A DNA stretch of 64,000 bases from Eledone cirrhosa. Its lineage: Eukaryota. The notes under the pieces were generated by a model. It was given only the letters and a program-made list of their open reading frames with translations. It did not search any database and was not told where the DNA came from. The DNA lies in NCBI GenBank assembly GCA_964016885.1, contig OZ024744.1, forward strand, positions 61,566,001 through 61,630,000. Reading direction: 5' to 3'. The position numbers and the translations under genes are program-made. Positions 1 to 62,246 of this stretch are shown in pieces (position 1 is the first letter of the stretch; every line of letters starts with the position of its first letter).

Positions 1-200
1 CTCCCCCCACCACCACCCCAGTGGACGTTGAGAAGGTCCAGGGGTCGGTGGGGTGGTGGTAGAGATGATGCAATAGTATATTAAATATCAAATGATACTT
101 ATATATATAAATATAGTAAAATAAAAAATATATGATATTTATTTATACATTGTATATATTATATTATTTATTCGATATAAATTAACGATTTTATTTATTA

Positions 201-1075
201 CTAGCAGTGGTACCCGGCGTTGCACGGGATAAGGTATTTTGAAGGCGGGCCGCTAACAGACCTAATCGTGGAAAAACTGCTTGCCTGGACAATATGTAAA
301 GAAAATAAACCGAATACTCTGATGGCTGGATAATCTTTAAGATTTTCCTCGATGAAGCAGGAAAAATGCAGGTTTTCACCTAATGCGGGCTCTAGGGGAT
401 CAAGAAAATGAATTTTTGTTATGTGCATAATATGCCTTGAAATTTCGGGAAAATCGGCTAGTCGTAACGCCTCAAAAAAGCCTTAAAAAGCTGAAAAAAT
501 GAAGTTTTTCACCTAATGCGGGCCCTAGGCCATAAAAAAAGTTGGATTTTCTTTGCTCACAGTATAGAAGAGACTGACTAATACATAATAGTTACAATTT
601 CAAGGAAATCAGTCTGATGTAACACCTCAAAAAAAACCTAAAAACCTGAAAAAACGCAGTTTTTCACCTAGGGGATAAAAAAGTAATACACATGTTAAGT
701 TTGAAAAAGGTCGGTTGGGTACTTCTCGAGTTTTAGGGATTCAAACTCAGACACACACACACACAGACATCCTCAGCGAAGTGACATAATGCAGACAGGC
801 AGACATACAGACAGATATTATAAGGGCGCGACGTTATATGTATGTATCTATCTAAAAAGAGAAAGACTAAGAATTATAGAGAGAGATCGCTAAATCGCCT
901 AATGCGGTCCCTAGGGCATTGAAAATTTGAATTTTTTTTTTGCTCAGAACACTCCCTGAAACATAAGTATTACACGTGTAAAGTTTGAAAACAGTCGGTT
1001 GGGTGCTTCTCGAGTTTTAGGGATTCAAACTCACACACACACACAGACAGATATCCTCAGTTTTATATATATAGA
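201..1075 (-). mobile_element. Non-autonomous Helitron with internal tandem sub-repeats
   Basis: On the minus strand it starts TCTATATATATAAAA and ends with the hairpin CCCGTGCAACGCCGGG followed by CTAG. It sits between A and T with no TSD. Internal duplications at ~690-775 and ~974-1060. Confidence 0.75.
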
Positions 1076-1896
1076 TATATTATGTACAATTTGCATGTAA
1101 GCAGATCTTTCTGGAAATAGGGTAGGGGTGGCGGCTGAGGGTATTACGGGGCCAAGAAGGAGACGGTAGCCCCAAAAGTTCGAGAACTTCTGATGTAACT
1201 GAAGAATCTTCTCATCCCACTCTTTCATGATTTCTATGGATGGACGATTGTACTAGGTGTTTATTATCTGACCATCGACACTAAGGAGGATATCTTAGGT
1301 GAAAAGGAATAAAGAGTCCTCTCTACCTTTTATCAATAGTTAAAGACACTTGACTCCAAGACAGTTGGCTTGCAATATGGTTTGGGGAGTTCACATCATG
1401 ATCATGTGTTCCATTGATGTAGTGGAGTGGGGATAGAATGCCAGTGGTCTGATATAGTATGTATATGTATGTGTCTGTGTACATGTCTATATGTGTGAGT
1501 GTATATATGTGCGCATGTGCCGCCCCAACATTTGCCCTCATGTGTATCTGTGTGAGTAAGTCTCTGTGTGCCCGTCCATGTATGCATGTGAGTGTGTGTG
1601 TCAGTGTGTATGTACGTGTTTGGGCATGTTCATGTGTGTGTCTGATGGACCTTCCTGTTCAGAATGATGTTTAATGGCTCTATAATAAAGGGTAAAATAT
1701 AAATCATGAAAATTTATAAAACTAAGTAAAAATGGGTTCTGCAGGTGAAGCATAAGTTGCCATCAACACAACAATTGATGTATACGGGCGGAACTTTGTG
1801 TTTTGATTAATGGTGGAGTTCAACTATACAGGTTTCAGTTGTTGAAAGACAGCTGCAGCTTTGCCAAATTTCTTTTCCTCAGCAGACTTATGCTTG

Positions 1897-2130
1897 CATC
1901 ATCATCATCATTTAACGTCCATCTTCCACGCTAGCACGGGAAGGACGCGCTGTCCCTTTGTGAGAGATCAGGTTGAAGGACTGTTTCACTCACACAGAAT
2001 TGATTTTGGCTGTATTTCTACGGCTGGATGCCCTTCCTAATGCCAACCACATTTACAGTGAGTGCTGGGGGCTTTTTTTGTCATGAAACCTACATGACCA
2101 CTTTACAGTGTGGACTGGGCACTTCTGTCA
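1897..2130 (-). mobile_element. SINE/RTE-tail fragment, (TGA)n-tailed family
   Basis: (CAT)n tail plus the family motif GGCTGGATGCCCTTCCTAATGCCAACC. Similar copies at ~2890-3105, 20085-20283, 20550-20780, 24470-24787, 25080-25363, 34133-34400, 39540-39765, 40810-41061, 42200-42477, 42560-42845, 46230-46420 and 54720-55040. Confidence 0.7.
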
Positions 2131-3254
2131 TGGTTCCAAGAGGACAACTTTATGGTGAATGTTGGAGACATGGATGGGGTGGGGGTGAGGAAGATGCCTG
2201 GAGAATTGAGGAGGTAGGTATAGGGGTGGGATGATTTCAGCAAGGGAGGTGTATGAGAGGGGTGATGATAGGGGAAGGCGTTGCCTACTAGATATATGCC
2301 GCAGCAAGATATGGAAAATGACCTGCAGAATTTACAGAACTGCGGGTCTTCCATAGATGTTACCTTAGTATTTCTGGGAGTAACCACAACATCACAAATG
2401 AGGAGGTCATGGATACTTTGCATGTTCTACAATGAGACTGGGAAGGGCCTCCCTTGAAAGGAAGCCAGAAAAGGTGGGGGAGTTTAAGAATAATTGTAGT
2501 AATGGCATATTATTCATGCATTTTACAGAGGTAAAAAAGCACATCCTACTACAATCATTCTTATTATGAAGATGAGACAGTGAAGATCCTGAAACGATAA
2601 TAGACTTGTTTGTGGGACTGAACTCAAAACCATGTGGCTGTGAAGCAATGTCCTTAACCACACAGCTTGGGTCTATATGTCCACAATTAAATACTGAAAT
2701 TGCAACAAGGAAAATAAATCATATGTTCATCAGTAGTATGTAACTCCTGAGGACCAGAGATATGCCAAAATGGAAGGAGAGACAAAAAAAAAATAGAACA
2801 TTTTTTAAAAAAATGGTTTTCATGGGTCCTATTCCATTGCTGATATCATCTGTGGTCATAACTCCCAACAGAAATGTCTATATATATATACATCATCATC
2901 ATCATTATCATTGTTTAATGTCCATCTTCCACACTAGCATGGGTTGGAAAGTTTTGTTCCACTTGAGGCGAGATTGGTCGCTCATACAGAACTGTATCTG
3001 GCAGGTTTTCTACGGCTGGATGCCCTTCCTAACACCAACAACATTTACAGTGTGGACTAGGAGCCTTTTTACCGTGTCTCCTACATGACCACTTTACAGT
3101 GGGCTGAAATGGGAGGATGGAGTAGGGTGTGTGGGATGGGTTGCGTGGGTGGGTGTGTGGGGTGGGGTGTATATTGGGTTAAGTCAGTACACATCTCTTA
3201 ACCGTTAAGAGATGTGTACTGACTGTAGGTTTAAGTTTGTATGCAATGGCAGTC

Positions 3255-3660
3255 GGGTCTTCTGTATAACTACATAGCGCTAAAGATCTCGGTCCAGTGA
3301 CATTGTCTTAGAGAGGTGTAAGTGAGCAAGGTCAGTTTTTATCACCTTGTCCCAGGTTTTTCTTGGTCTCTCCACTCTGTAGCTTCCATCAATTTTCATT
3401 GCTCTGCACTTCTTTTTTATACAGCTGTTGTCCCTCATACGCATCACATGGCCATACCAATGCAACCTCCTCTCCTGCACACAGCATTTGATTCCTCTTA
3501 TGCTCAGTCTCTCTCTCAATTCAATTATGCTTTGCCGTTTGCATATATTACTATTACACATCCATCGGAGTATACAAGCTTTGTTTCTTTCTAATCTATG
3601 CAAGTCTTCAGCACACAATGCCCAGGTCTCACTACCATGTAACATTGCTACCCACCCCCA
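3255..3660 (-). mobile_element. RTE-clade LINE 3' fragment
   Basis: Translation LHGSETW...RWMCN...RRLHWYGHVMR...RPRKTW is typical of the RTE C-terminus; same family as 40068-40810. Confidence 0.85.
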
Positions 3661-6600
3661 TAGCATCTCTAGTAACCAGCCTCACCATCACTGTACACCC
3701 CCACCCCATCGATGCCCCTTCCTGCATCCCTCCTTAGTTATTTCTACCATCACTACACCCTCCTCTAATATCATAAGTTGCTACTCTTTCTATCCCTGTG
3801 CATCTTCTCCACTACCAACCACACTTTAGCTATCCTCTCTATCATTACTTTCCCTTCATAAAATCCTGACACCTGTGGCTACTCCCCCATGCCATCAGAG
3901 ATCACCACTTCCCTCCTAATCATCATCCATCAAATCCCACCACACCAGCCATACATGCATAATATCATACTTATTTTCCTTCTCCCCACCAAATTCAGAG
4001 CAGAGAAGGCTATTCAGTTGGGACAATAACCTAAAACCTCTCTTGTGTTGGTGTCACGAAAATGCACATAGTACACCCTGTAAAATGGTTGCTTATAGGA
4101 AGGACATCCTGTTGCAGAAACCATGCTAAAAAGGGTCGCAAGGACCCTTCAGTTGTGCCAACGACATAATGCCCCGCCCCTAGTGCTTGGATGCACTCAG
4201 GAGAGTGTGTGATTATATGTATGCAACATGCACGCCCCTAGCTCATCTGAGGTGTCAGTAGCTCCATTTGGCTACTAACTCAGACAGGGAAGAATTGTCG
4301 AATCCTTGCTAGCAGGGAAAACAAACATTAAATCATGGCACTATCTGTTGGCAACAATTCATGGCAAAAAGTGTCATTGCTTTTCTATTGACAAGAAGCG
4401 AAATTTTGATTCAAAATGCAGAGCCAGAACAGGTGCTGCATGGTATCCCATAGAATACTCTGACAATTTCGTGCCATTCCACCACACATGAACTGGTACT
4501 TTATTTACTGAATCTTGAAAAGATGAAAATTAAATTTGGTCTTGATAAGATTTGAATTCACAGCAGAAATAGTTGGAACAAATACCACAAATAGTCGTTT
4601 TTGATATGCTAATGACCTTGCTAATTTGTTATCTATGAAAGATGTGAAGTCAGGTAAAACAACTAATTGATATTAAATCACTAATTAATAATATTTATGT
4701 ATTTATTGTGGATTATAATAATCCAAACAACACATTAGTCAATAGCTTTAGATAAATTCATTGACAATACTGACTCACTGCTGGGTGTTATTTTTTGTTG
4801 ATGATTTTAATTAATGCCAAGAATTACTTTCTGAAAGCCTTTCATGATACTGAGTGGCCTAGTGGTTAGAATGTTGGTTTTATATGGTCATGAGTTTGAT
4901 TCTGGGACTGAGCAGTGCACTGTGGCCTTGACTTGAACAAAACACCTCCCTTCACATTGCCCACTCAAGAGATTACAGCTCTGATACTATGAACATGTAG
5001 TTGGAATGTCTAAGGAAAGAATCACTAGATAGATTTTATGAGTCAGGGAGTAGCCAACTGGCAGGACATTCAGAGGTAGACCATAAGCAAGATGGTTGAA
5101 TAGCATCAATTAGTTTGGGTGGTCTCTCTTGGAGATCCAACTGGATAGAATGAAGATGGTTGATTCAGACAGAACCCTCTGGAAAGCATGTCAGAACTCT
5201 TCCCCAACAACCCACCGAAGAATAATTAGGTGAAACAGAAGGAGGATGGTGATGATGATGAGGATGATGACAGTGATGCTGGTGATGATGATGATGAGGA
5301 GGAGGATGTTATTTCCTTATTTGCCACTCCTTCACCTGCATTTCCACCCACATTGTCTATTTCCTCCACTGTTCCCTTTGCAGGTCCTTATACTTCAAAT
5401 AGGCCACCATCTGGCAGGCTGATTCGCAGAACACTTGAAGGACATATGCCTTGGCAGTGATACCCCCATCGCCTGTCACTTCCATTCCTAGGCTACTCCT
5501 CTTTACATGTCTCAGTCCGGGGTGTCCTTTTGTATCACCGATACCAACCTCATGCACTATAACTGAGCAGAACTTCATTTTCCACTATGGGTCCAGTTTC
5601 CCTAATGGACACATCTCCCCTCCACAATTTCTTTAATCTTTATTTACCCTTGCATGCATATGCTTGTGTATGCTTCTACACCCTTAGCCATTGTTATTCC
5701 TACCTTGTTCGCTGTCACACGTGAGTTTCCTATGACTCTGTTACAGTCAGAAACACATGCCCTTACAGCTTTGTATGGACCAACAACATACATGTACACA
5801 TCTCTACACTTACACTTACAGCTTCATATCCACTCTGAATACAAAAGGATTTTTTCCTTTTCAGCATAATATAGACCAGAGTGGCCCGCGATGACCGTTT
5901 TTAATTTTTACCCTGTAGAATTATTTTGATTTTTTTTTTTGTAACCATAATACAATTTTCTGTTAGTTGACCTATATACTAAAGGGCTTCACTGATAGGC
6001 TTATGTGTGTTATAATTGCCCAGTTCCATGTTATGGAAAGAAGTTATGGTGAATCTTTGGGATAGTGCTTAATAAATATTAGTGGCCCTAATAGTTATTC
6101 CAATGTTCAAAAGTGGCCCGCCAATGGAATATGTTGCACATGCCTGATATAGACGCTTTTGATCACAGCCAACTGAACTTCCTACACTATAAACACTCTT
6201 ATAAACAGTTTTCCAAGAGGTGGTGAAATGAACAGACCTGTTTTTTTCTAAAAGAAATATTTTTTTGTTCCTACCCTATCTTTTTATTTCTTTTTTAATT
6301 TCTCATTCTCTTTTCTGATGAAGAACTAGCATCCAAAACATTAAAACTTTTCCTACTATATTAAGCATGAACTAATATATATCTTCATTGTATTGTTTTT
6401 TCTGTATACTTTTCATATATATGTGTGTGTGTGTGTGAGTGTGTGGACATACATCTCTATGCAAATCACCTCATAAATGTTGCTGTGACATTTATGAGGT
6501 AAACAGCACAGCAGACAATATTGGCCAACCATTTCAACATCTGTTGTGCAACCTCATTTTTATGTTTTGTAAATATTTTTTACTTTGTTCCATTTTTAAT

Positions 6601-9600
6601 TTAATAATATGATGTTTGTGCATATAATGTTGTACAACTTTGCATAAAAGGTGCTATGAGTTAGACATAGGCTGGGTCAATACTGGCCAAAACGATCAAA
6701 GTTAGAATTAGCCTGATATACATTGTCATCGCCCACTTTGAGGTACAGCTACCCAAGGCCTTGTAATCATCACTATATCCATTTCTTCTGCCTAGAAACT
6801 TGGCCCTCTGAAACTCCCTCTTGACTTGTAACTCCTCTTCTCATCACCATATTATGCACAGCCACCACACTATCTGCTACAGCCAGTCTTTGCTGCTCAC
6901 AAATTTGTCCAATGTATTCTTTCCTTTCCTTCCAGATAGTAGGTGTTTCAAGAGGCAGATTTGGTTGCTATTTCTGGCATGTTGAGCAGTTCACACAGCG
7001 ACACTCTTCCTTTATTTGATTGTTATTATTTTAAATTCCATTGGGAAGAGGAGCAGGATGGCTGTTCCCATTTCTTTCTTTATTTAAGATAGGATATAAG
7101 GTCAATTAAATTAACCCCTGTACTTGAAAGTTACTTTATTTCATTAACATGATAAGAAGGCATAGCTGACCATAACAAGTTGTTAAGGGCTTGACTTTAA
7201 AGAAATGTGTCAGTCTTCAGGCATGTTCACTACACAACCACTTTTGCCCTGGCAACCAGGCAGTGTAATGCTGGCTGCCCTTCCCAGTCAAAAGAAGGTA
7301 TAGGCAATCTTTTCCATTCTTCATAGCCACCAAGCAGAGGAATGCTGCCTTCCTTTCCTGGCCAAAAAAGAAGTAGGGTAATTTTCATCATAGACTCAGT
7401 CAATAGCCAGATCTGTACCACATCTGTTAACAGCTGTTTGATAAAATCCTACAGATCAACAATGCTTGAACACTAAATAAGTGCATGCAGAACAGTTTCA
7501 TTGCTTATGCACATCTAGGACAGTCCCGGATGATAGCATTTTTGTGCCTGTAGAATTTATCTGGACCTAGAATTGGCAAGAGATATGTGAAAATTATAAT
7601 GTCCAGTTTGAAAGTTCTCTGGAACAGACCAATCTGTTATTTCTATTGATGCCTTGAGTTTCTTTGAAAGTGTTTTCACGCTTCCTCACCATCAGCCTTC
7701 TATAAAATGATGAGGAAGTTTGACTGGCCACATTGTCTGACTGTTTGAGGGCTGTGGGTGTCTGACATTTCAGATTCCACTTGCCCAGTCTTTGTTTTTG
7801 CTTCACCCAGGACTGAAGCTCTGTCAAAGAGATGAGTTGTGGAAAGATATGCCTGACAAAGGCCCACACCTGTTCATTAAGCATACAGCTCATAGATATC
7901 AAAGATAGGTTTGAATTCTTGTCTTGAAAATTCTGGTTATACTGATGGCTAGCAGTTAACACATTAATGACCAGACAATGGATTTATGCTACCTACTCTT
8001 AGTAAGGTTGTGTTGGTTGGAAAGGTAAAAGTACAGGACAAGTGAGATGGTCTTCCCAGAAATTAAGTACTCCCTGAAAGGCTAGTCCAAGAATCTTTTG
8101 TATACTGTTTCTACCACTTCTTAATCAGTTATATATTCTCTATAACTGTATCCTTGAACTTTTAAGAGAAGCCCATAATCTGGTAGTTTGGATAAGAGAT
8201 TCTAGAAACCCACTCTTTTTCTTGTGTTCTTTTTGAAACTTTATTAATTCCACATATTTGTTTACAACCAAGACAACATGGTTAGTGTGTTTTTCTTTCT
8301 TTTATTGTGCTTGATGTTTCTATGTTTCCTGTTTGAGGTACTTGTATTGGATTTGCCTGTAATGGTATGGGTGTGTAAATGTTCAAAGGGAAAGTTTGAG
8401 GTGGCCTTTTTATAATTTTTATTTCATTTCTCCCTTGCAAGGGCTTTGGATGATGTTCCTATGTCAAAAATCTGAGGTAGAAGATGGGGAAAAAAATAGG
8501 GAGATTTTTTTCGTTTCTTTGTTTTGTTTTTTGTTGGGGGGGGGGGGGGGGGGGGGGTCTTGTTCTGTTGTTGCTGCAGTTTCTGTGACTGCTACTTGTC
8601 TTGCAGCTGTTGCTTTTGTGAAATGTATACAATAACAGATCTGATCCAAATGCTTGCAATGGAATAGATTCCACTAAAAGCAACCAAGGATCAGGTGGTA
8701 GTCTATCACCCAAGTAGGATGCAGCAGGATTTGAATGCAGAACACAGAGCATTGGAACAAATACTGCAAGGCATCTAGACTGGTACATTATTTTTATCAA
8801 ATCACAAAAGGATGAAAGGCAAAGTTGGCCATGACAAAATTTAAATACAAAGAGCTTGTCCAACACCCAACACTAACAATTCCTTCAATCCACTGCCCTT
8901 AGATTGATACTTTGTTTTATTCCCCAGCAGGATTAGAGACAAAGTTGACATGGGTAGCATTTGAATTTAGAATGCAAAGAGCTTGAGCATATACAAGGTA
9001 TTTTGTCCAATACTAAACAATTCCACCCAACCATCACCCTAAAGACAGATGAGAGTTAAAGTCAATTATTCCCTTGAAGGTTGTGCCCCAGCATGACCTC
9101 AGTCTAATAACTGAAACCAGTTCCCCCACACCGCCCCCCCCCCCCAAAATGTGCAGCACTGATTTTGATCTTCCGAAAGAAATAAGTACTGGAGCCAATA
9201 TATTTGATCAAATCTCTTAAAGATGGTGCCCCAGCTTCGCTGCAGTCAAATGACTAAACCAAGTAATTAAAAGAATAAAATAAAGTCGAAAACCAGTATC
9301 AGTTGTGTGATGCTAACAAATTTTATTTCAAGCATTGCATGTAACCATTACTTTATCACAAGTTGTCAATATTACTGTGTTGTGTCCATTTAAATTAAGA
9401 TTTATATGTGGGAAAAAAAAAGATAGAGAAAGACAGAGAGACAGAGAGGTAGAGAGAGATAGAGAGAGAGAGAGAGAGAAAAGAAGGAAGCCTTTATTAT
9501 TATTTTTTTCTCTAATCTCAACATTTATGATATTTTTGGATACATGAATTAAAATTGTCAGCAATGAAATTTGAAAAAAAATTTTTTATAGAAAAAGATG

Positions 9601-10311
9601 AATTGATTGGAAAAGAAAAATAATGGCAGGGGGAGGGGAGAAGGGGCCAAGAAGTAGGTAATAAATAAAAGGAATAAAAAAAAAAAATTAATTTCTTATA
9701 TTTCAAAATAAAGAAACTTTAAAAAAAAAAGAAAAATGGAATTGCATGCTCCATGTGTTTAATACATGATTAATAATAGATATTATACACATATTGCAGG
9801 GGGGGAGTATGTTTTTAAAAAAAAATGTATGTGTGAATATGTGTGCATATATACATATACACACACATATGTACATATATCTATATGTGTACCTGTATGT
9901 GTGTATACATATATATATGTACATCATCATTATCATTTAACGACTGCATAAATGATGATGTGTACATATAGGTATATATAAATATATACACATATACACA
10001 CATATATATCACTCTGTTACCAGCACAGAGTTGTTTTTTTATGTTAAATATTTAAAATATAGTTTTTGAAATCAATTTTACTTATAAATATTATGATGAT
10101 ATATGCTTTTGTTTTGTTTTGCTTTTTTTCTTTCATGTTTTTATTTTCTGTTACCTTATTTGCATCAAAACTTCCTTTCGGGATTTTAGTGGTTTCGTTT
10201 ATTTTTTTTTTAGGAATAATGTTTAAAAACAATAATAGTTAATGGTAATTAATAATCATGATTAAAGTAAATTAATAAATAAGCAAAATACCCAATAATA
10301 AGTGATTTAAT

Positions 10312-10515
10312 TTAACCCTTTTGATACCAAACAGCTTGAAACCACCGCTAGTTTAATGATACATAACTATTTGTTATGTTATGTTCCCAACATTAGCTTA
10401 ATAACGTGAAAGTTATTTATGTTACTAAATCTTTCCAAATTCTTTGATTATTTTCAAATGACATGAAAATTATAGGCAGTGTATTTCGTTACAAATATGG
10501 TATCAAAAGGATTAA
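10312..10515. mobile_element. piggyBac-type MITE (TTAA-flanked)
   Basis: TTAA-CCCTTTTGATACC ... GGTATCAAAAGGA-TTAA. Related copies at ~23173-23410, 26339-26609, 49882-50067 and 60877-61092. Confidence 0.7.
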
Positions 10516-12453
10516 ATGATTTGAGAAACGAAAAGTACAGCGCTTTAAAAAATTGATTTTAATGAATTGTTTTAAGCGGCAGGGTGGGGGAAAAATGTCT
10601 TCAAAAATTGCAAAAATATTGAGGACAAAAAGTTCTGTTGAGTTTGTTATTATAATTATTATTATTATATCGTCATTGTGTAAAATGAGTTTGGTAGGAA
10701 AAATAATTTCTAAAGTTCCCTTTTGCTGGTTAGAAAAATTTTGATACTAAAAAAAGGAAATATATATATTATTAAGAAAATATCAAGAGAAAAAAATAAA
10801 TCTTTTAAGTGTGATTTTACAGTTTACTGGACACAAATATATCGTAGTGACAAATATATGTAATATGCAATAGAGAATAACGACATCGAAGCCAAAATAT
10901 AAAGACATTCATACAAACACACATTCACACACATATACAAACATTAACATAGAAAGGAAGTTCAGAATGTATTATTTAGAACACAAGTCCAGTAGAATCT
11001 ACAAAACTAGATGTGTTCCATTGACGTTGCCTTAGGACCATACTGAGGATTTTGTTGGCATGACCACATCAAAAATAAAGAGGGTCATGGAGAAGGCTTG
11101 GCTGTGTAATCTAAGAGATACCATTACCATACAACAACAAGTGTTTGCATCTCCGTGTTTGTCTTGGCTATTCTTGAACACTATATATATATATATTATA
11201 TATATAATTACTACATTCAGGAGATAGTTTGATGCTTTCATCATTTACTTCAACATTCAAAGTAAAACAGAAACAACAGTGTGTTGGCATACACGCGAGT
11301 GGCATAGAATTGCATTTTTGTAATAAAACAAAGACGAAACACAACATCTATCACACACACATACACACATTCATGTAGCCTGGCACGCACACACATACAT
11401 ACATACACATACATATTTATATATAAATAAGGACTGGATTTTACATTAGAAGAATAATTTTGGCATAAGGCAATGTTTCTAGCTCAAAACTCTCAGAGAA
11501 GAATTTTGCATGGACAGAAAGGATAAATTACTTATTATTTTGGATTGGATTTTCTTAAAACTCGAATTAAAAAGAAAAAATATATATTAAAAAAGATATC
11601 AAGAATTATTTGTCTTTTTTAATTATAGTTGTTCTTTTGTTGTTGTTGTTTATATTTTTCTTCTTTCTTGCTTTATTTATTTTTATTTTTTTGACAAACA
11701 TTGTCTGGATGGTAAAATAAGCTCACCAATAGTAATTTTTTCTCCTATTGCTGGAAAAAAAGCTCCAGATACAATAAGCATAAAAAATTATTTTCATTGC
11801 AAATTAAAAAAGGCAGAATGCTGATGTGTGTGAATAAGAATTGTAGTAACTCTTTCTATGAATACAAAAATTTTGTGGAAGAGATGAAAAGGTATGTTTT
11901 GTCTTTGTTTTTTGTGTTTTTTTTTTTCATTTTTAGTGTAAAAAAGATTACAAAAAAGTAATTCGGTGGGGCAAGAAAAAGTTTAGAGCCCACCAATAAA
12001 AATTTTACTCCAAAGATTTTTTTAATGTTTCAAAAGAGCAGATAAAAAAAAAAATAGAAAAAAAATTCACAGCGTTTGATAAAATTAGAACATTTAAAAG
12101 CATGTTAGCCTTTCATTTCATTAAAAAAATAAATAACTGGCACTTGAGATGTAAAAAAATTCCTCTTTGAATGCAACTAAAATAAGGACATGTTTTTTTT
12201 CTTTTCTCCTCTAATGTTGGTTTATGTATGAAACAAACCCAACATCAACACCAATACATTAGTGCAATAAGGAAGCAATTATGCTACGAAAAGGCATAAT
12301 TATTTAATTATTCAAATAGTAAACAGGAATATTTTACATTTTAGAATTCATGGAATGATGTAAATTATGCTTTATATTTTTCTTCAAATATACAAACTGT
12401 TTAGTTCAGTTTGTAACATGGATATATATATATATTATTATATGTATATGTGT

Positions 12454-13128
12454 ATATATATATATATGAAAACGGAGAAAGAGACGATTATTAGGAAGAA
12501 AAATATATTTTTTTCCTTTTTTGTTTCTCTCTCTTTTTTCTGGGTTAGAAAATGATTAAAACAAAATGTTTTACTTTGTGTGAAGTGTTAAGGTATTAGT
12601 TAATTTATTTATTATTTAACAATGGCATTTATTTATATATTTAATAATTGTCTATTACCGGTTTCAGAATTTTTATGCATTATCAAATGATAGTGAAATG
12701 TATTAGTGTGGTGTCACACATGTTAAAGAGAAGGTGCAGAAAGAATAATGTTATTTACAAACAAGGTTTATGAAGTGAAAAAAAATTTCTTTTTTCTTTT
12801 CACTTCATAAACCTTGTTTGTAAATAACATTATTCTTTCTGCACCTTCTCTTTAACATGTGTGACACCACACTAATACATTTCACTATCATTTGATAATG
12901 CATAAACATTCTGAAACCGGTAATAGACAATTATTAAATATATAAATAAATGCCATTGTTAAATAATAAATAAATTAACTAATACCTTAACACCTCACAC
13001 AAAGTAAAACATTTCGTTTTAATCATTTTCTAACCCAGAAAAAAGAGAGAGAGAAACAAAAAAGAAAAAAAAAAAATTTTTTTCTTCCTAATAATCGTCT
13101 CTTTCTCCGTTTTCATATATATATATAT
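12454..13128. repeat. Long near-perfect palindrome (~330-bp arms, centre ~12790)
   Basis: 12454-12781 is the reverse complement of 12797-13128, with about three substitutions plus homopolymer/dinucleotide length differences. Confidence 0.95.
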
Positions 13129-13159
13129 CGTAACTCGTGTGCTTCCTCTCCACATTTTA

Positions 13160-13208
13160 TTATTATATATATATATATATATATTATATTTATATATATA
13201 TATACATT

Positions 13209-13241
<33 letters not shown>

Positions 13242-13360
13242 ATATTTATATACATTTATATATATACATTTATATATATATACATTTATATATATATACA
13301 TTTATATATATATATTTATATATATATACATTTATATATATATATATATATATATACATT

Positions 13361-13425
<65 letters not shown>

Positions 13426-13569
13426 TTATATATATATATATATATACATTTATATATATATATATATATACATTTATATATATATATATATATATACATT
13501 TATATATATATATATATATACATTTATATATATATATATATATATACATTTATATATATATATATATAT

Positions 13570-13609
<40 letters not shown>

Positions 13610-13791
13610 TTATATATATATATATATATATATACATTTATATATATATACATTTATATATATATATATATACATTTATATATATATATATATATATACA
13701 TATATATACATTTATATATATATATATATATATATATACATTTATATATATATATATATACATTTATATATATATATATATATATATATAC

Positions 13792-13829
<38 letters not shown>

Positions 13830-14245
13830 TTATATATATATATATATATAATATACATTTATATATATATATTTATAATATACATTTATATATATATATA
13901 TTTATATACATATATATTTATATACATATATATTTATATATATATATTTATATATATATACATTTATATTTATATATATATATATATATATATACATTTA
14001 TATATATACATTTATATTTATATATATATATATATATATATACATTTATATTTATATTTATATATATATATATATATATTAAAATATATACATTTATATA
14101 AATATATTTATATAGGTATTTATTTCTATTAATCTTAAAAATATATATATATATATATAAATCTTAAATATATATATACATTTATATAAATATTAAATAC
14201 ATATATATATATTTATATAAATATTAAATATATATATATATAATA
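13160..14245. repeat. ~1.1-kb (TA)n microsatellite with CATT interruptions
   Basis: Seen directly; it explains the YI-repeat ORFs. Confidence 0.95.
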
Positions 14246-14284
14246 TACTTAGTATGGAGAAAGAGTTACATTCTTTGCTCCAGT

Positions 14285-14794
14285 TTACAGTGATATGAGG
14301 GTTGGAGAACCAACCTGATCTGAACTACTTTCGGCTGAATTCTTATGAACTTGACTAGCACATGACTGACCACTTACAGGAGGTAGACCCGAATTTGCTT
14401 CGACAATGTTTTCCAAATCTGTGAAACTGTAATATGCATTGCCGTGAATATTACTGATGTTAAGACTTCCATCAGGGTTAGCACCAGAACCAACTTGCCC
14501 ATTGTTTCCCAGATGGACACCTTTTTCTTGTTTAACAACAGCCAATGGAATTGCCTGATTCGGATCTGTCATGCGCAATCGTGCATCGTTTTTATGAGAA
14601 CAGGAATTTTGATGAGAATCAATCTCTGTCTTGATTTTTATGGTGTGCAGGTTAGATGACTGGTTCAATTTCCCATCAGCTTTGCAGTCGGGGCGATGGG
14701 CTTGAAGGATGAATTCCAGTCGATCTTTCTGCTGTTTCAAAGTTTGAATTTCATCTTCAAGATGGCTGCGTTCCTCTTCGAGCTTTACAGTTTC
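14285..14794 (-). CDS. Fos: Fos-family bZIP factor, coding exon 4 (leucine zipper and C-terminus)
   Basis: Acceptor ttacag|GAA at 14795/14794. ETVKLEEERSHLEDEIQTLKQQKDRLEFILQAH matches the Fos zipper, and the end SSSDQVGSPTLISL* resembles c-Fos SSDSLSSPTLLAL. Confidence 0.95.
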   Translation of the reverse strand, partial: ETVKLEEERSHLEDEIQTLKQQKDRLEFILQAHRPDCKADGKLNQSSNLHTIKIKTEIDSHQNSCSHKNDARLRMTDPNQAIPLAVVKQEKGVHLGNNGQVGSGANPDGSLNISNIHGNAYYSFTDLENIVEANSGLPPVSGQSCASQVHKNSAESSSDQVGSPTLISL

Positions 14795-17695: not shown

Positions 17696-17836
17696 CTGAA
17701 TAAGGCGATTAGTGTGGTCAACCCTTCTTTGACGACATTTTGCGGCAGCTATCTTGTTCCTTTCTCTTCGAATTCTGCGACGTTCTTCTTCTTCTGAACA
17801 CAATCTATTGCTAAAGAGGGATTGCATAATTTCATC
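17696..17836 (-). CDS. Fos: Fos-family bZIP factor, coding exon 3 (basic DNA-binding region)
   Basis: Polypyrimidine tract then cctag|GAT at 17836; donor CAG|gtaaat at 17696/17695. Encodes [24 protein letters not shown]. Confidence 0.93.
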
Positions 17837-48720: not shown

Positions 48721-50496
48721 GGGATAGCACCTCTTCCACCTCAAAGGGTCCCATCTCTAAAAGCTATCACTCATAACTATAATTGATCGTAAGGCTTCTA
48801 TAAAACACCCACAAACTGTAATTTTTTCGTTGCTTACCATTAATCTTTCTTTACTTTGTATTGCAGACTACCTTGCTAACTTTTAACTGACAATAGTGCT
48901 TCCCTTATCTATATTTTTATCTCCATCATATACATAATATTATCTTGTTCTCCTGTTAAGTTCAGCATTTATGGGTAGTATCAAGCAAAATGAAAATGTG
49001 ATGAGTAAGTAGTACAGCACTTTACACATTGGTTGCTTGACAGTGACAGAGGCATCCACTGATCTCACCATAAACCATGTACTCTAACCACCTAACGTCA
49101 TATATCCTCTCAACAGAACTCTCACACACATATATATATGTGTGTGTGTGTTCAGTGAAAGTTGTTTCGGTAAAAAATCAGGAGTAAACAGGAGAAAGCC
49201 CTCTACATTTGTAGTGTGTAGTTACGATGGAGATTCACTATAAGAATAACATTAAAAAGATGCTGATATTAAATGATTTATGCAATATCAGCATCTTTTT
49301 AAATGTTATTCTTATATATATAGTTGTTTCTACTTTTTGGCACAAGGCCAGAAATTACTCAGTGCATTACTTGGTACTTTATTTTATCAACTCCGTAAGG
49401 ATGAAAGGCAAAGTTAACCTCGGCGAGATTCGAACTCAGAATGGCAAGGGCCGTAACTCTATGCGTCAAAGCATAGCGTCCGACCCTCTACCGATACTGC
49501 CAATCCACCGCCCTATATATAGTGTTTGTGATTCAGTGAATTACTGGTTGTGGTACCAAAACAAGCACTCTATGCACAGACAGAGTGTATATATTAGAAG
49601 ACCAACACAATGCGTTATGAAGATTGTTAAATTGCCAAGATAACAAAAGAATCTTACCTTAGCAAGTTTAACGATCCCAAATATTTTCAGGTTTATTCAA
49701 GGGAATAACCTTATGAGAGGCTTAAAAATCGATCGGATTGACATGTTTGTATGGAAGCAGATTTAGTCAAATGAAATGAAAAGACGTCTTTTCATTTCCC
49801 TTAAATCTTTATTAGCAGGTGACAGAATAACCAATATGTGAGTGCTATTGCTTTTTATACGTGCCAGTGTTCTCACAATGTTCAACCCTTTCGTTACCAT
49901 ATCTCTAAATGAAAGACACTCACTGATTTTCACTTAATCTTGAAAATAATCAAGAATTTAAAGGGGTTCAGTAATGTAACTAAGTGTAACTAAGGTTCTT
50001 AGATAAATATAAACATTAAGCATAGAACCAAGAGCAGTTTCCGTCGGATTGGTAGCAAAAGGATTGAACCCCACTGAAATCTATTGGATAGGTTCGGTTT
50101 GAACCCCCTTGAATCATAGGTCTACTCGTTCAGTGCTGACCTGGGGTTAAACAATGACTTCTAATAATATACCAATAACAACATTAAATAGTAAGCAGTA
50201 ACAACAAGGCTGTCGTCATAGGCATCTTTATTCAGCGCAAAAACCATTTAAAGATAATCAACCAAAGAAGGACTGCCTGTCTAGTTTATTTATAAGTAAT
50301 TATCTGAATTTGTTTGCGTAAACTCATCTCGATTTAAATATAGGTCAGTGTGTGAGTGTGCGCGCGTCATTTATATGTACCATACAAAACCGCCAGTTTG
50401 TGTCAATGTTCACACCCTATTTTTTAACAAATTTTTACATAAAACGTCTTTATCCATATAGTGCTTTCTAAAGTTTACTGTAGTTATTTATAATTC

Positions 50497-50812
<316 letters not shown>

Positions 50813-60125: not shown

Positions 60126-62246
60126 GATATATATATATATATGTATATAAATGAAAGGTATATATATATATAAAGATTTGTCAGCCTGCTAAACTCTTAA
60201 GTTGGAATTAATTTATTTGGGAGAATGGGCGCTTAATTAGGAGAAAGGAGATCACATTGTATGGGGCTAGTCTAGGGTACTTAATACTCAGTCGCTGGCC
60301 CTGTATAGCGACAGGCTCATTTTAAAATCATGTTGCAGTATACAAAGCTGTAGAATCATTATTTAAATTCAGAATGATTATTCGTGACATTACACACTCT
60401 TTATTTTCATTGCTTAATCATCATTTCTCCTATAGTAAAGGGTATTCCCTGATTTAAATGCTTCAGTCAGCTGCAAAATAAGTTGTTGTTTATTTATGAT
60501 AGAAACAAATTTTATTTACAAAAATATTTCGCAAAATAAAGAGGAAGAAAGAAAAAAATTAAACAATGAAAAGGGCAAAGAGGGTGTACAAACTCTACAT
60601 CCCTGTCTTAGGCGGTATATCTCAGCTGTTCCCTGCGGACAAGATGGCGAAAGCGTTGCAGCGGAGAACAGGCAACAATACCTGCTGTATCAGCCACTCT
60701 ACTTCAAGGGCTCTTTCCTCAACCGGTATTTGTGAACGTAGTAAATAGTTAAGTCATTTTGTTCTCGGAAGGCTGTAACGCTAAAATAAATAGTTTAATC
60801 CCATTCTCTACCAACAATAAATTAAAATATAACTCGTTTCTTAAAGAAGCTTCTAGATGGTCACAATGCAAGCTAGAAACCCCTTTTAACAGCAACTCAC
60901 ACGAATGTTCAAATTTGACTGAAATCTCATTATTACATGCTAGATAACATTAGATTTGAGTATTTATAAATATTTATCTTTTGTTATTAAGTTGAAAGTT
61001 ATTTTAATAAACCTCTCACAATCCTCCATTATTTTGATAATTAAAACACAAATGTATAGTCTTGTTAGAAATATAGTCACAAAAAGGGTTCAGAATGGGA
61101 AAATAACGTTATTTCGATTTTTTTAAAAGTTACGATTACACTTATAAATCATTGTTGATCATTTGTTTCTGGCCGTTTCCCTTAAATAAATGCATTCTTT
61201 GTAACTTAAGAGGTCCTGTTTGACATTCACCGATAAATTTTAAAGTATTCATTACTTTAAGAATGTTTCGTAAGTCTAACTTGACAAAAGTTTTATTTTG
61301 GTATCCACTTCCTAGTTATTAAACTTAGATTATTTCTACTTAGATATGTTCTATCCTTATGAAAGTAGAATGGTAGATTTATTTAACTGTTCACAGTTGT
61401 TCACCTGGCTACTCGAAAGATTGAGCCCCGCGAGTTGGCGTGGCTGTTCTAGTGCGTCACCCTCTCCATCCTTAAGGGTAACGACTTTTCCATTTCTGTC
61501 CACTGGTACCCCGAGGCGGACGAACCCTTAAACTTAAATAAAATATATATGGTGGATTGGCAGTATCGGTAGAGGGTCGGACGCCATGCTTTCCAGCATA
61601 GTTACGTCCCTTTATGATCTGAGTTCAAATCCCGCCGAGGTTGACTTTGCCTTTCATCCTTACAGGGTCGATAAAATAAAGTACCAGTAATGCACTGGGT
61701 AATTGCTGGCCTTGTGCCTAAAGTAGAAACAATTATATTAAATACCTAAAATTACTCTTCCACGATATAAGACACCCCATTAATAATTGTTTCTACTTTT
61801 GGCACAAGGCCAGCAATTACCAGTGCATTACTGGTACTTTATTTTATCGACCCCATAAGGATGAAAGGCAAAGTTAACCTCGGCGGGATTTGAACTCAGA
61901 TCATAATAATTTCTAATAGTTTGTAGATTTATTTAACATTTCAAAACCGTTTTAATATTACAGTCATTTTACCTCGTTAGTTTTATACATGTAGTTGCGT
62001 TGCAGCTATATACAACATATAAGATGGTGAACTGGGATGTAAGCTTGTATTAATATTTCGTTCACGTGGATGTTGTCGTCATCAAAACTATCGATCATCC
62101 GACACAATGATGACCCACCACTTCTGATGTCAAACATACTTAAAAGATTGCGTCATCTTATAAGCATGCCGCCTGTAATAACACTGCTACTGATGTTACT
62201 TGCTGCAGTAGTAATATCAGTAGTAGTGAAACTACACCGTTCATTT

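Follow-up and report, generated by a model that had tools for sequence, protein, structure and literature searches.

Overall, our analysis indicates that the palindrome behind the Fos-family gene in the window (the whole 64,000-nucleotide stretch considered here) very probably consists of two copies of the 3' end of a Penelope-like retroelement (PLE) with Neptune-type motifs, both 5'-truncated, set back to back and likely delivered by one insertion at (TA)n, and that it is likely a passenger there, one that would become an ADAR-type substrate only if Fos transcription reads through it. The inverted repeat occupies positions 12454-13128 and is made up of a distal (left) arm at 12454-12785, on the minus strand and thus in the same sense as Fos, a proximal (right) arm at 12793-13128, on the plus strand and antisense to Fos, and a loop of 7 nt (12786-12792) that joins the two truncated 5' ends within the element's variable (CTTTTT)n/A-rich tract. 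The first-pass annotation had described a fold-back with arms of about 330 bp and hardly any loop, lying 1.2 kb 3' of the stop codon and bounded by (TA)n on both sides, and this description holds: (TA)n is present at both outer ends, and the palindrome begins approximately 1.15 kb beyond the Fos stop codon (14285-14287, minus strand). The count of about three substitutions between the arms, on the other hand, was too low, as we find 7 in 332 paired columns (2.1%), at 12505, 12507, 12515, 12563, 12584, 12671 and 12782, three of them outside A/T tracts, together with two 2-nt indels; identity in the arm alignment is 95.9% over 680 columns. When folded computationally, the Fos-sense strand of 12440-13170 gives a single predicted hairpin with 337 pairs and an energy of -499 kcal/mol.

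The gene itself is represented by a last coding exon at 14285-14794 (minus strand; leucine zipper to stop, with the splice acceptor read from the sequence) and a basic-region exon at 17696-17836 (minus strand; Pfam bZIP_1; FosB E=1.1e-7, c-Fos E=4.3e-5), and the two join in frame at splice sites likewise read from the sequence. Between the stop codon and the insertion lies a 1.08-kb (TA)n-rich array (13164-14247), which is the likely target site, since family copies carry (TA)n at their 3' ends; a (TA)n-rich microsatellite at 12422-12467 marks the left end of the insertion. Beyond it, the distal flank (11400-12415; depth 92-205 in run X3) is single-copy in the genome and is a candidate for the distal part of the Fos 3' UTR. 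Open frames in 1-9000, judged by eye, include no obvious second gene able to own this flank; one of them resembles a LINE remnant.

The arms had been called non-transposon-looking, a description that does not survive a genome-wide search: they are a high-copy interspersed repeat. A 20-mer from the arm occurs exactly 1,147 times in the genome (597 + 550), against none for a reversed control, and a search with the right arm returned 2,726 candidates, 40 of which were scored, with at least 46 matches and 93-97% identity in the full-length ones, or 93-96% in those lying outside the window. Summed depth in run X1, which is not a copy number, is 2e4-1.4e5 on the arms versus 4.65 on the flank. For the counts of family copies given below, L001 and L002 (the window itself) and L003, L011 and L018 (duplicates of L029, L010 and L027) were left out beforehand. 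In most of the family copies examined a single arm is present, and the palindrome centre, searched for as a fold-back centre at that point with a gap of at most 30 nt, is unique (1 of 1 locus genome-wide). The palindrome as a whole is therefore not the mobile unit. These observations bear directly on whether the structure might be a MITE or foldback DNA transposon, mobile as a 675-bp whole with a TA target duplication, as its long terminal inverted repeats, TA flanks and non-coding content would allow. We give that reading next to no chance, since the centre junction is unique by exact pattern (which diverged copies could escape), the majority of examined copies are single-armed, and in other copies the arm sequence runs on into RT/GIY-YIG coding sequence.

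The coding sequence identifies the parent. The arms correspond to the last ~340 nt of a PLE, its pseudo-LTR region, both mapping to ~5476-5825 of the long natural copy L023, with the distal arm matching bases ~5482-5825. Positions 3169-5160 of L023 hold a 664-aa frame with an RVT_1 domain (E=2.2e-7), DKG and YLDD motifs, a C-x4-CxxC linker and the CCHH residues; the GIY-YIG endonuclease of the parent element has a C-x2-C within its core, and two His. L023 itself does not reach the Pfam cut (E 0.01) for GIY-YIG; at locus L010, a GIY-YIG domain (Pfam E=1.4e-8) lies just upstream of the arm sequence. From the CxxC to the pre-GIY cysteine we count, by eye, 24 residues, versus 25 and 27 in the two rows for Neptune and ~7 in the three for Nematis (Craig et al., Fig. 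S2), and the Poseidon rows in the supplement alignment of PMC8557442 have no linker. Judged from sequence motifs and linker spacing, the parent would thus fit the Neptune clade rather than Nematis or Poseidon. Naiad was rejected, as the endonuclease is C-terminal rather than N-terminal and the motif is DKG, not DKA, and so was Hydra, given the CCHH residues and DKG instead of DKT. In 2 of the 4 places where the PMC8557442 supplement names Octopus, it appears with Naiad families only. A homologue search with the element protein gave 853 matches at E<=1e-30 among 8,000 scored, with an RT+GIY-YIG architecture, and no clade names appear among the 120 homologues listed. Five of the homologues (P0017, P0040, P0046, P0069 and P0083), at 45-47%, are filed under the names of bivalve bacterial symbionts and probably represent host contamination of those assemblies. 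Pieces of other RT/GIY-YIG elements are nested near family copies in L027 and L028, and L027 also holds a fragment that we take, from its motifs, to be a PIF1/Helitron-like helicase. A complete pLTR-ORF-pLTR unit is absent from the loci examined, and the first 100 listed 20-mer matches include one direct pair.

The arrangement of the two arms is the arrangement expected of such an element. PLE insertions are described as heavily 5' truncated, with a truncated copy in inverted orientation next to the 5' end, with a tail of 30-40 bp that is often at one end only, and with a preference for (TA)n that is tied to the linker motif (PMC8557442). In the window both 3' ends face away from the centre. 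The left arm ends within the inner (TA)n and has no tail, and the right arm passes the inner (TA)n and continues for a further 37 nt (13129-13165, plus strand), a tail whose antisense supplies the AATAAA at 13161-13156. The likeness to the Neptune PLEs of that study extends from the domain order (RT, then a CX2-5CxxC linker, then GIY-YIG with CCHH) to 5' truncation, the adjoining inverted truncated copy, the one-sided 30-40 bp tail and the (TA)n-associated ends. The window differs from them in holding just two equally short non-coding ends, hence an almost loop-free palindrome, and in a hammerhead-like motif of the U3-A8 type whose stems are weak.

The same signature recurs elsewhere in the genome. 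Of 44 other 3' ends, 12 are followed by the element tail. The first 100 listed 20-mer matches form an unselected run along one contig; with neighbours within 5 kb paired, they give 10 tail-out pairs, no tail-in pair and the one direct pair, so that 20 of the 100 matches sit in back-to-back pairs; the tail is on one arm in 7 of these 10, on neither in 3 and on both in none. Eleven pairs found earlier (5 of them picked because the second arm was visible) show a one-arm tail in 10 cases and none in the other. Taken together, a one-sided tail characterizes 17 of the 21 other inverted pairs and is absent from 4, and both arms never carry it. Arm divergence over the 11 earlier pairs ranges from 1.1 to 7.2%, which places the window's 2.1% at the young end.

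Several changes are shared by the two arms. Those at 12910/12668 and 12976/12602 occur in none of 39 other copies, an 8-nt deletion occurs in 2 of the 39, and a 2-nt loss near the end is likewise absent or rare among them; the arms therefore appear to derive from one template, although later duplication, or gene conversion (homogenisation) between the arms, also fits these shared private changes. Overall identity alone is no proof of a common origin, since the left arm is equally close (96.7%) to the closest other copy in the sample and, in that alignment, to its partner. A two-step origin, in which a single PLE 3' fragment inserted and was then duplicated in inverted orientation by template switching at a fold-back as the DNA was replicated or repaired, would likewise account for the private changes common to both arms, and the palindrome at 50485-50719, centred on (TA)n and unmatched in the loci examined, hints that such events may occur here. 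Nonetheless, the one-sided tail, as in 17 of the 21 other pairs, and the excess of tail-out over tail-in pairs (10 versus 0) are what the element's own integration is expected to produce, and we consider the two-step origin improbable. For insertion by the element itself, a route can be proposed from published PLE biology: the protein of a Poseidon-type PLE cleaves AT-rich DNA on both strands, and reverse transcription starts at two internal sites, which define the tail (PMC11167929). By analogy, the endonuclease would nick AT-rich DNA, here the TA array, on both strands; the nicks would prime two short cDNAs, each begun at one of the two start points in the 3' end of the element, one with the tail and one without; and the truncated 5' ends of these cDNAs would then be joined within the T-rich tract of the element.

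The first-pass annotation had also raised an assembly fold-back artefact, and a loop of just 7 nt is what such an error might leave. The centre is bridged by none of the listed contig pieces of runs X1, X2 and X3, nor by 12 reads of X21 (98% comparison; contigs break at hairpins), and no differences are listed for these four runs in that comparison. The arms, however, differ at 7 sites and by two indels, and one of the changes, at 12563, is of CpG type. A private allele of the right arm is found in two samples, a tail on just one arm is the mark of a biological process, and comparable pairs whose centres differ are found on various contigs. We therefore regard an artefact as unlikely, and indeed highly improbable. 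Runs X5 and X7, from other organisms (90%), contribute 4 pieces each that cover only 20-30 low-complexity bases and are uninformative for orthology.

Run X3, which carries the same organism code as X1 and comes from another sample, comprises 88 million letters of contigs; its depth is 92-205 on the flank and 123-2,053 in most bins of the arms, an excess of a few-fold to about twenty-fold, compared with thousands-fold in X1. Because of this small contig total, deep flank and modest arm excess, we take X3 to be a probable transcriptome; none of the runs listed is recorded as RNA. At 12994, the private allele of the right arm has a depth of 119 in X3, much like that of the distal flank, with no other letter, versus ~7 of 8,015 in X1; this allele and the cover of the distal flank argue further against an assembly artefact. 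An X3 contig 2,467 nt long extends beyond 11400, and the X3 contigs suggest that, distal to the palindrome, single-copy sequence is covered over more than 2.9 kb (9461-12415). If X3 is RNA, the Fos 3' UTR would be near 5 kb. A long Fos 3' UTR that passes through the palindrome is thus hinted at by X3, whose contigs are strandless and would also fit a plus-strand transcript, and we infer that the long Fos isoforms include the hairpin. A-to-I editing was not seen in the contigs of the runs, a weak test; the A>G differences listed at 12602 and 12716 are family-state alleles and are present in X1 too.

The mammalian c-fos 3' UTR carries an AU-rich element (ARE), with AUUUA pentamers downstream of the stop codon, and the earlier proposal was that the hairpin would mask AREs of Fos. 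The AU-rich stretch quoted from the proximal arm reads as given, overlapping ATTTA included: a cluster of six AUUUA pentamers, two of them nonamer-type, lies at 12935-12975 (minus strand), where it is the antisense of the element's A-rich AATAAA/AAATAAAT stretch. Minus-strand ATTTA starts are at 12975, 12971, 12964, 12951, 12947, 12939 and 12825, which makes 7 in the proximal arm in Fos sense versus 2.5 expected (P=0.011). In 36 of 39 other element copies, though, the antisense strand also has 7-9 ATTTA, and we therefore reject a native, Fos-specific AU-rich element. The resemblance to the mammalian c-fos ARE lies in AUUUA pentamers 3' of a Fos stop; unlike that element, the pentamers here are element antisense shared with other copies and form no conserved Fos element. 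Outside the hairpin, in Fos sense, there are 7 AUUUA in the TA array, 4 in 11400-12453 and 10 in 9400-11399, the latter two counts being at or below chance (7.0 and 11.0 expected). The distal arm contributes element-derived AATAAA at 12633, 12613 and 12609 and ATTAAA at 12645 (12604-12645, minus strand), candidate poly(A) signals and predicted pairing partners of the AUUUA cluster; the AATAAA sites reported at 14124 and 13161 both exist. Of the masking proposal, then, one half stands: transcription of the palindrome would give a predicted near-perfect duplex of ~330 bp that takes in the AUUUA cluster. The other half falls, as the cluster is not native to Fos and arrived with the retroelement. 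Since hairpin and AUUUA motifs came in one retroelement insertion, the hairpin is no device for covering native Fos AREs.

Each arm also contains a hammerhead-like relic, at 12892-12922 (plus strand) and, in Fos sense, at 12656-12686 (minus strand). The relic has a U3-A8 core, a GAAA box and a palindromic stem III, features shared by the element family, in which most copies have a U-U mismatch; L023, L026 and L028 have a 5-pair stem II, whereas in the window stem II is broken by the change at 12910 that the other arm shares (12668). The U3-A8 variant has been reported in PLEs of Schistosoma, the Cercyon elements (PMC4209133), and the likeness to the minimal PLE pseudo-LTR hammerheads of that work covers the core and GAAA boxes, the palindromic stem III and the U3-A8 covariation. 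The relics differ from them in having no G10.1-C11.1 pair, a stem I of ~2 pairs and a stem II broken in both arms, and on these sequence features they are likely inactive. An Rfam scan of six loci gave no hammerhead among 150 of 157 rows listed, the only matches being generic miRNA hairpins below gathering scores. Self-cleavage of Fos mRNA by the distal-arm relic was rejected as unlikely because stem II is broken, stem I is minimal and the motif is buried in the duplex, and because such motifs cleave poorly even when intact (PMC4209133).

An amended form of the first-pass proposal is an exapted switch. The insertion might have been kept because of what happens to Fos isoforms long enough to include the hairpin, be it editing, retention, dicing or stabilisation, with poly(A) choice (14124, 13161 and 12609-12633 versus distal sites) as the toggle, as with inverted Alus. 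The position in a likely long 3' UTR, the predicted hairpin of -499 kcal/mol and the AATAAA sites before, within and after it would all serve such a switch; there is precedent in inverted Alus of human UTRs governed by poly(A) choice (10.1101/2023.11.30.569399), and UTR editing in coleoids is reported to concentrate on repeats (PMC9068888). At the same time, the insertion is young and family-typical, and with 20 of the first 100 listed family matches in such pairs, some should fall within UTRs at random. The AUUUA cluster has kept the state seen across the family, and where the arms differ, base pairs are lost with no compensating change; the contigs, in their weak test, show no editing. We therefore hold an exapted switch to be unlikely, and a regulatory role of the palindrome in Fos possible but unsupported, at similarly low odds; any effect of the hairpin on Fos would be a side effect, not a selected switch. 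The insertion is best described as ordinary and young, at most a passenger providing double-stranded RNA in the manner of inverted Alus.

With inverted Alu pairs in 3' UTRs (10.1101/2023.11.30.569399; PMC3458544) the palindrome shares a retroelement-derived duplex of ~300 bp and a putative inclusion in the 3' UTR by poly(A) choice; unlike them it was likely made in one insertion rather than two independent ones, is 98% paired with a 7-nt loop, and has a putative transcription and effect. With the hyper-edited palindromic repeats of frog Harbinger and lizard Penelope (PMC5625713) it shares self-folding into a predicted ADAR substrate that needs no neighbour, its editing being a prediction; the same source reports that lizard Penelope is massively edited and that octopus has unusually many near-perfect duplexes. 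A bolder proposal, which we put forward tentatively and think unlikely, joins two ideas. A single Neptune-type insertion would have given the long 3' UTR of Fos, an immediate-early gene, a complete control cassette in one step (an AUUUA cluster, a perfect hairpin concealing this cluster, and poly(A) signals both upstream of and within the hairpin), with isoform choice setting destabilisation, editing or silencing; and, because a fifth of the family's sampled copies stand in back-to-back pairs, Penelope-like insertion would be a genome-wide factory of ADAR substrates that might explain part of coleoid hyper-editing. In the literature covered, no paper was found that deals with the window palindrome or with the Fos 3' UTR of an octopus, most subscription papers and Repbase being outside that scope.

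Extrapolated from 10 pairs per 100 matches to the 1,147 matches, back-to-back pairs of this family probably number a hundred or more genome-wide. Before a long palindrome at (TA)n in this genome is read as regulatory, it should be screened against Penelope-like ends. As it stands the locus is of little consequence, and its remaining value is as a clean test site, where a young, near-perfect 330-bp duplex with arm-specific alleles lies behind a gene of neural activity in an animal that is likely a coleoid. The genome seems to be very rich in fold-back structures. Other long palindromes, 96-97% alike and made of other sequences, adjoin family copies in L007 (1943-2881, 943 nt), L010 (1958-2361, 404 nt) and L008 (1360-1471, 112 nt). 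Within the window, the near-perfect palindrome at 50485-50719 has ~85-nt non-repeat arms around (TA)33, is also unmatched in the rest of the window, and is possibly a microsatellite fold-back or the extreme ends of another element. At 61612-61906 there is an inverted pair (arms of ~125 nt, 96% alike, with a ~45-nt spacer) of a different, very abundant repeat of ~180 nt, which is present in 8 copies in the window and at many other loci, and which forms inverted pairs in L009 as well.
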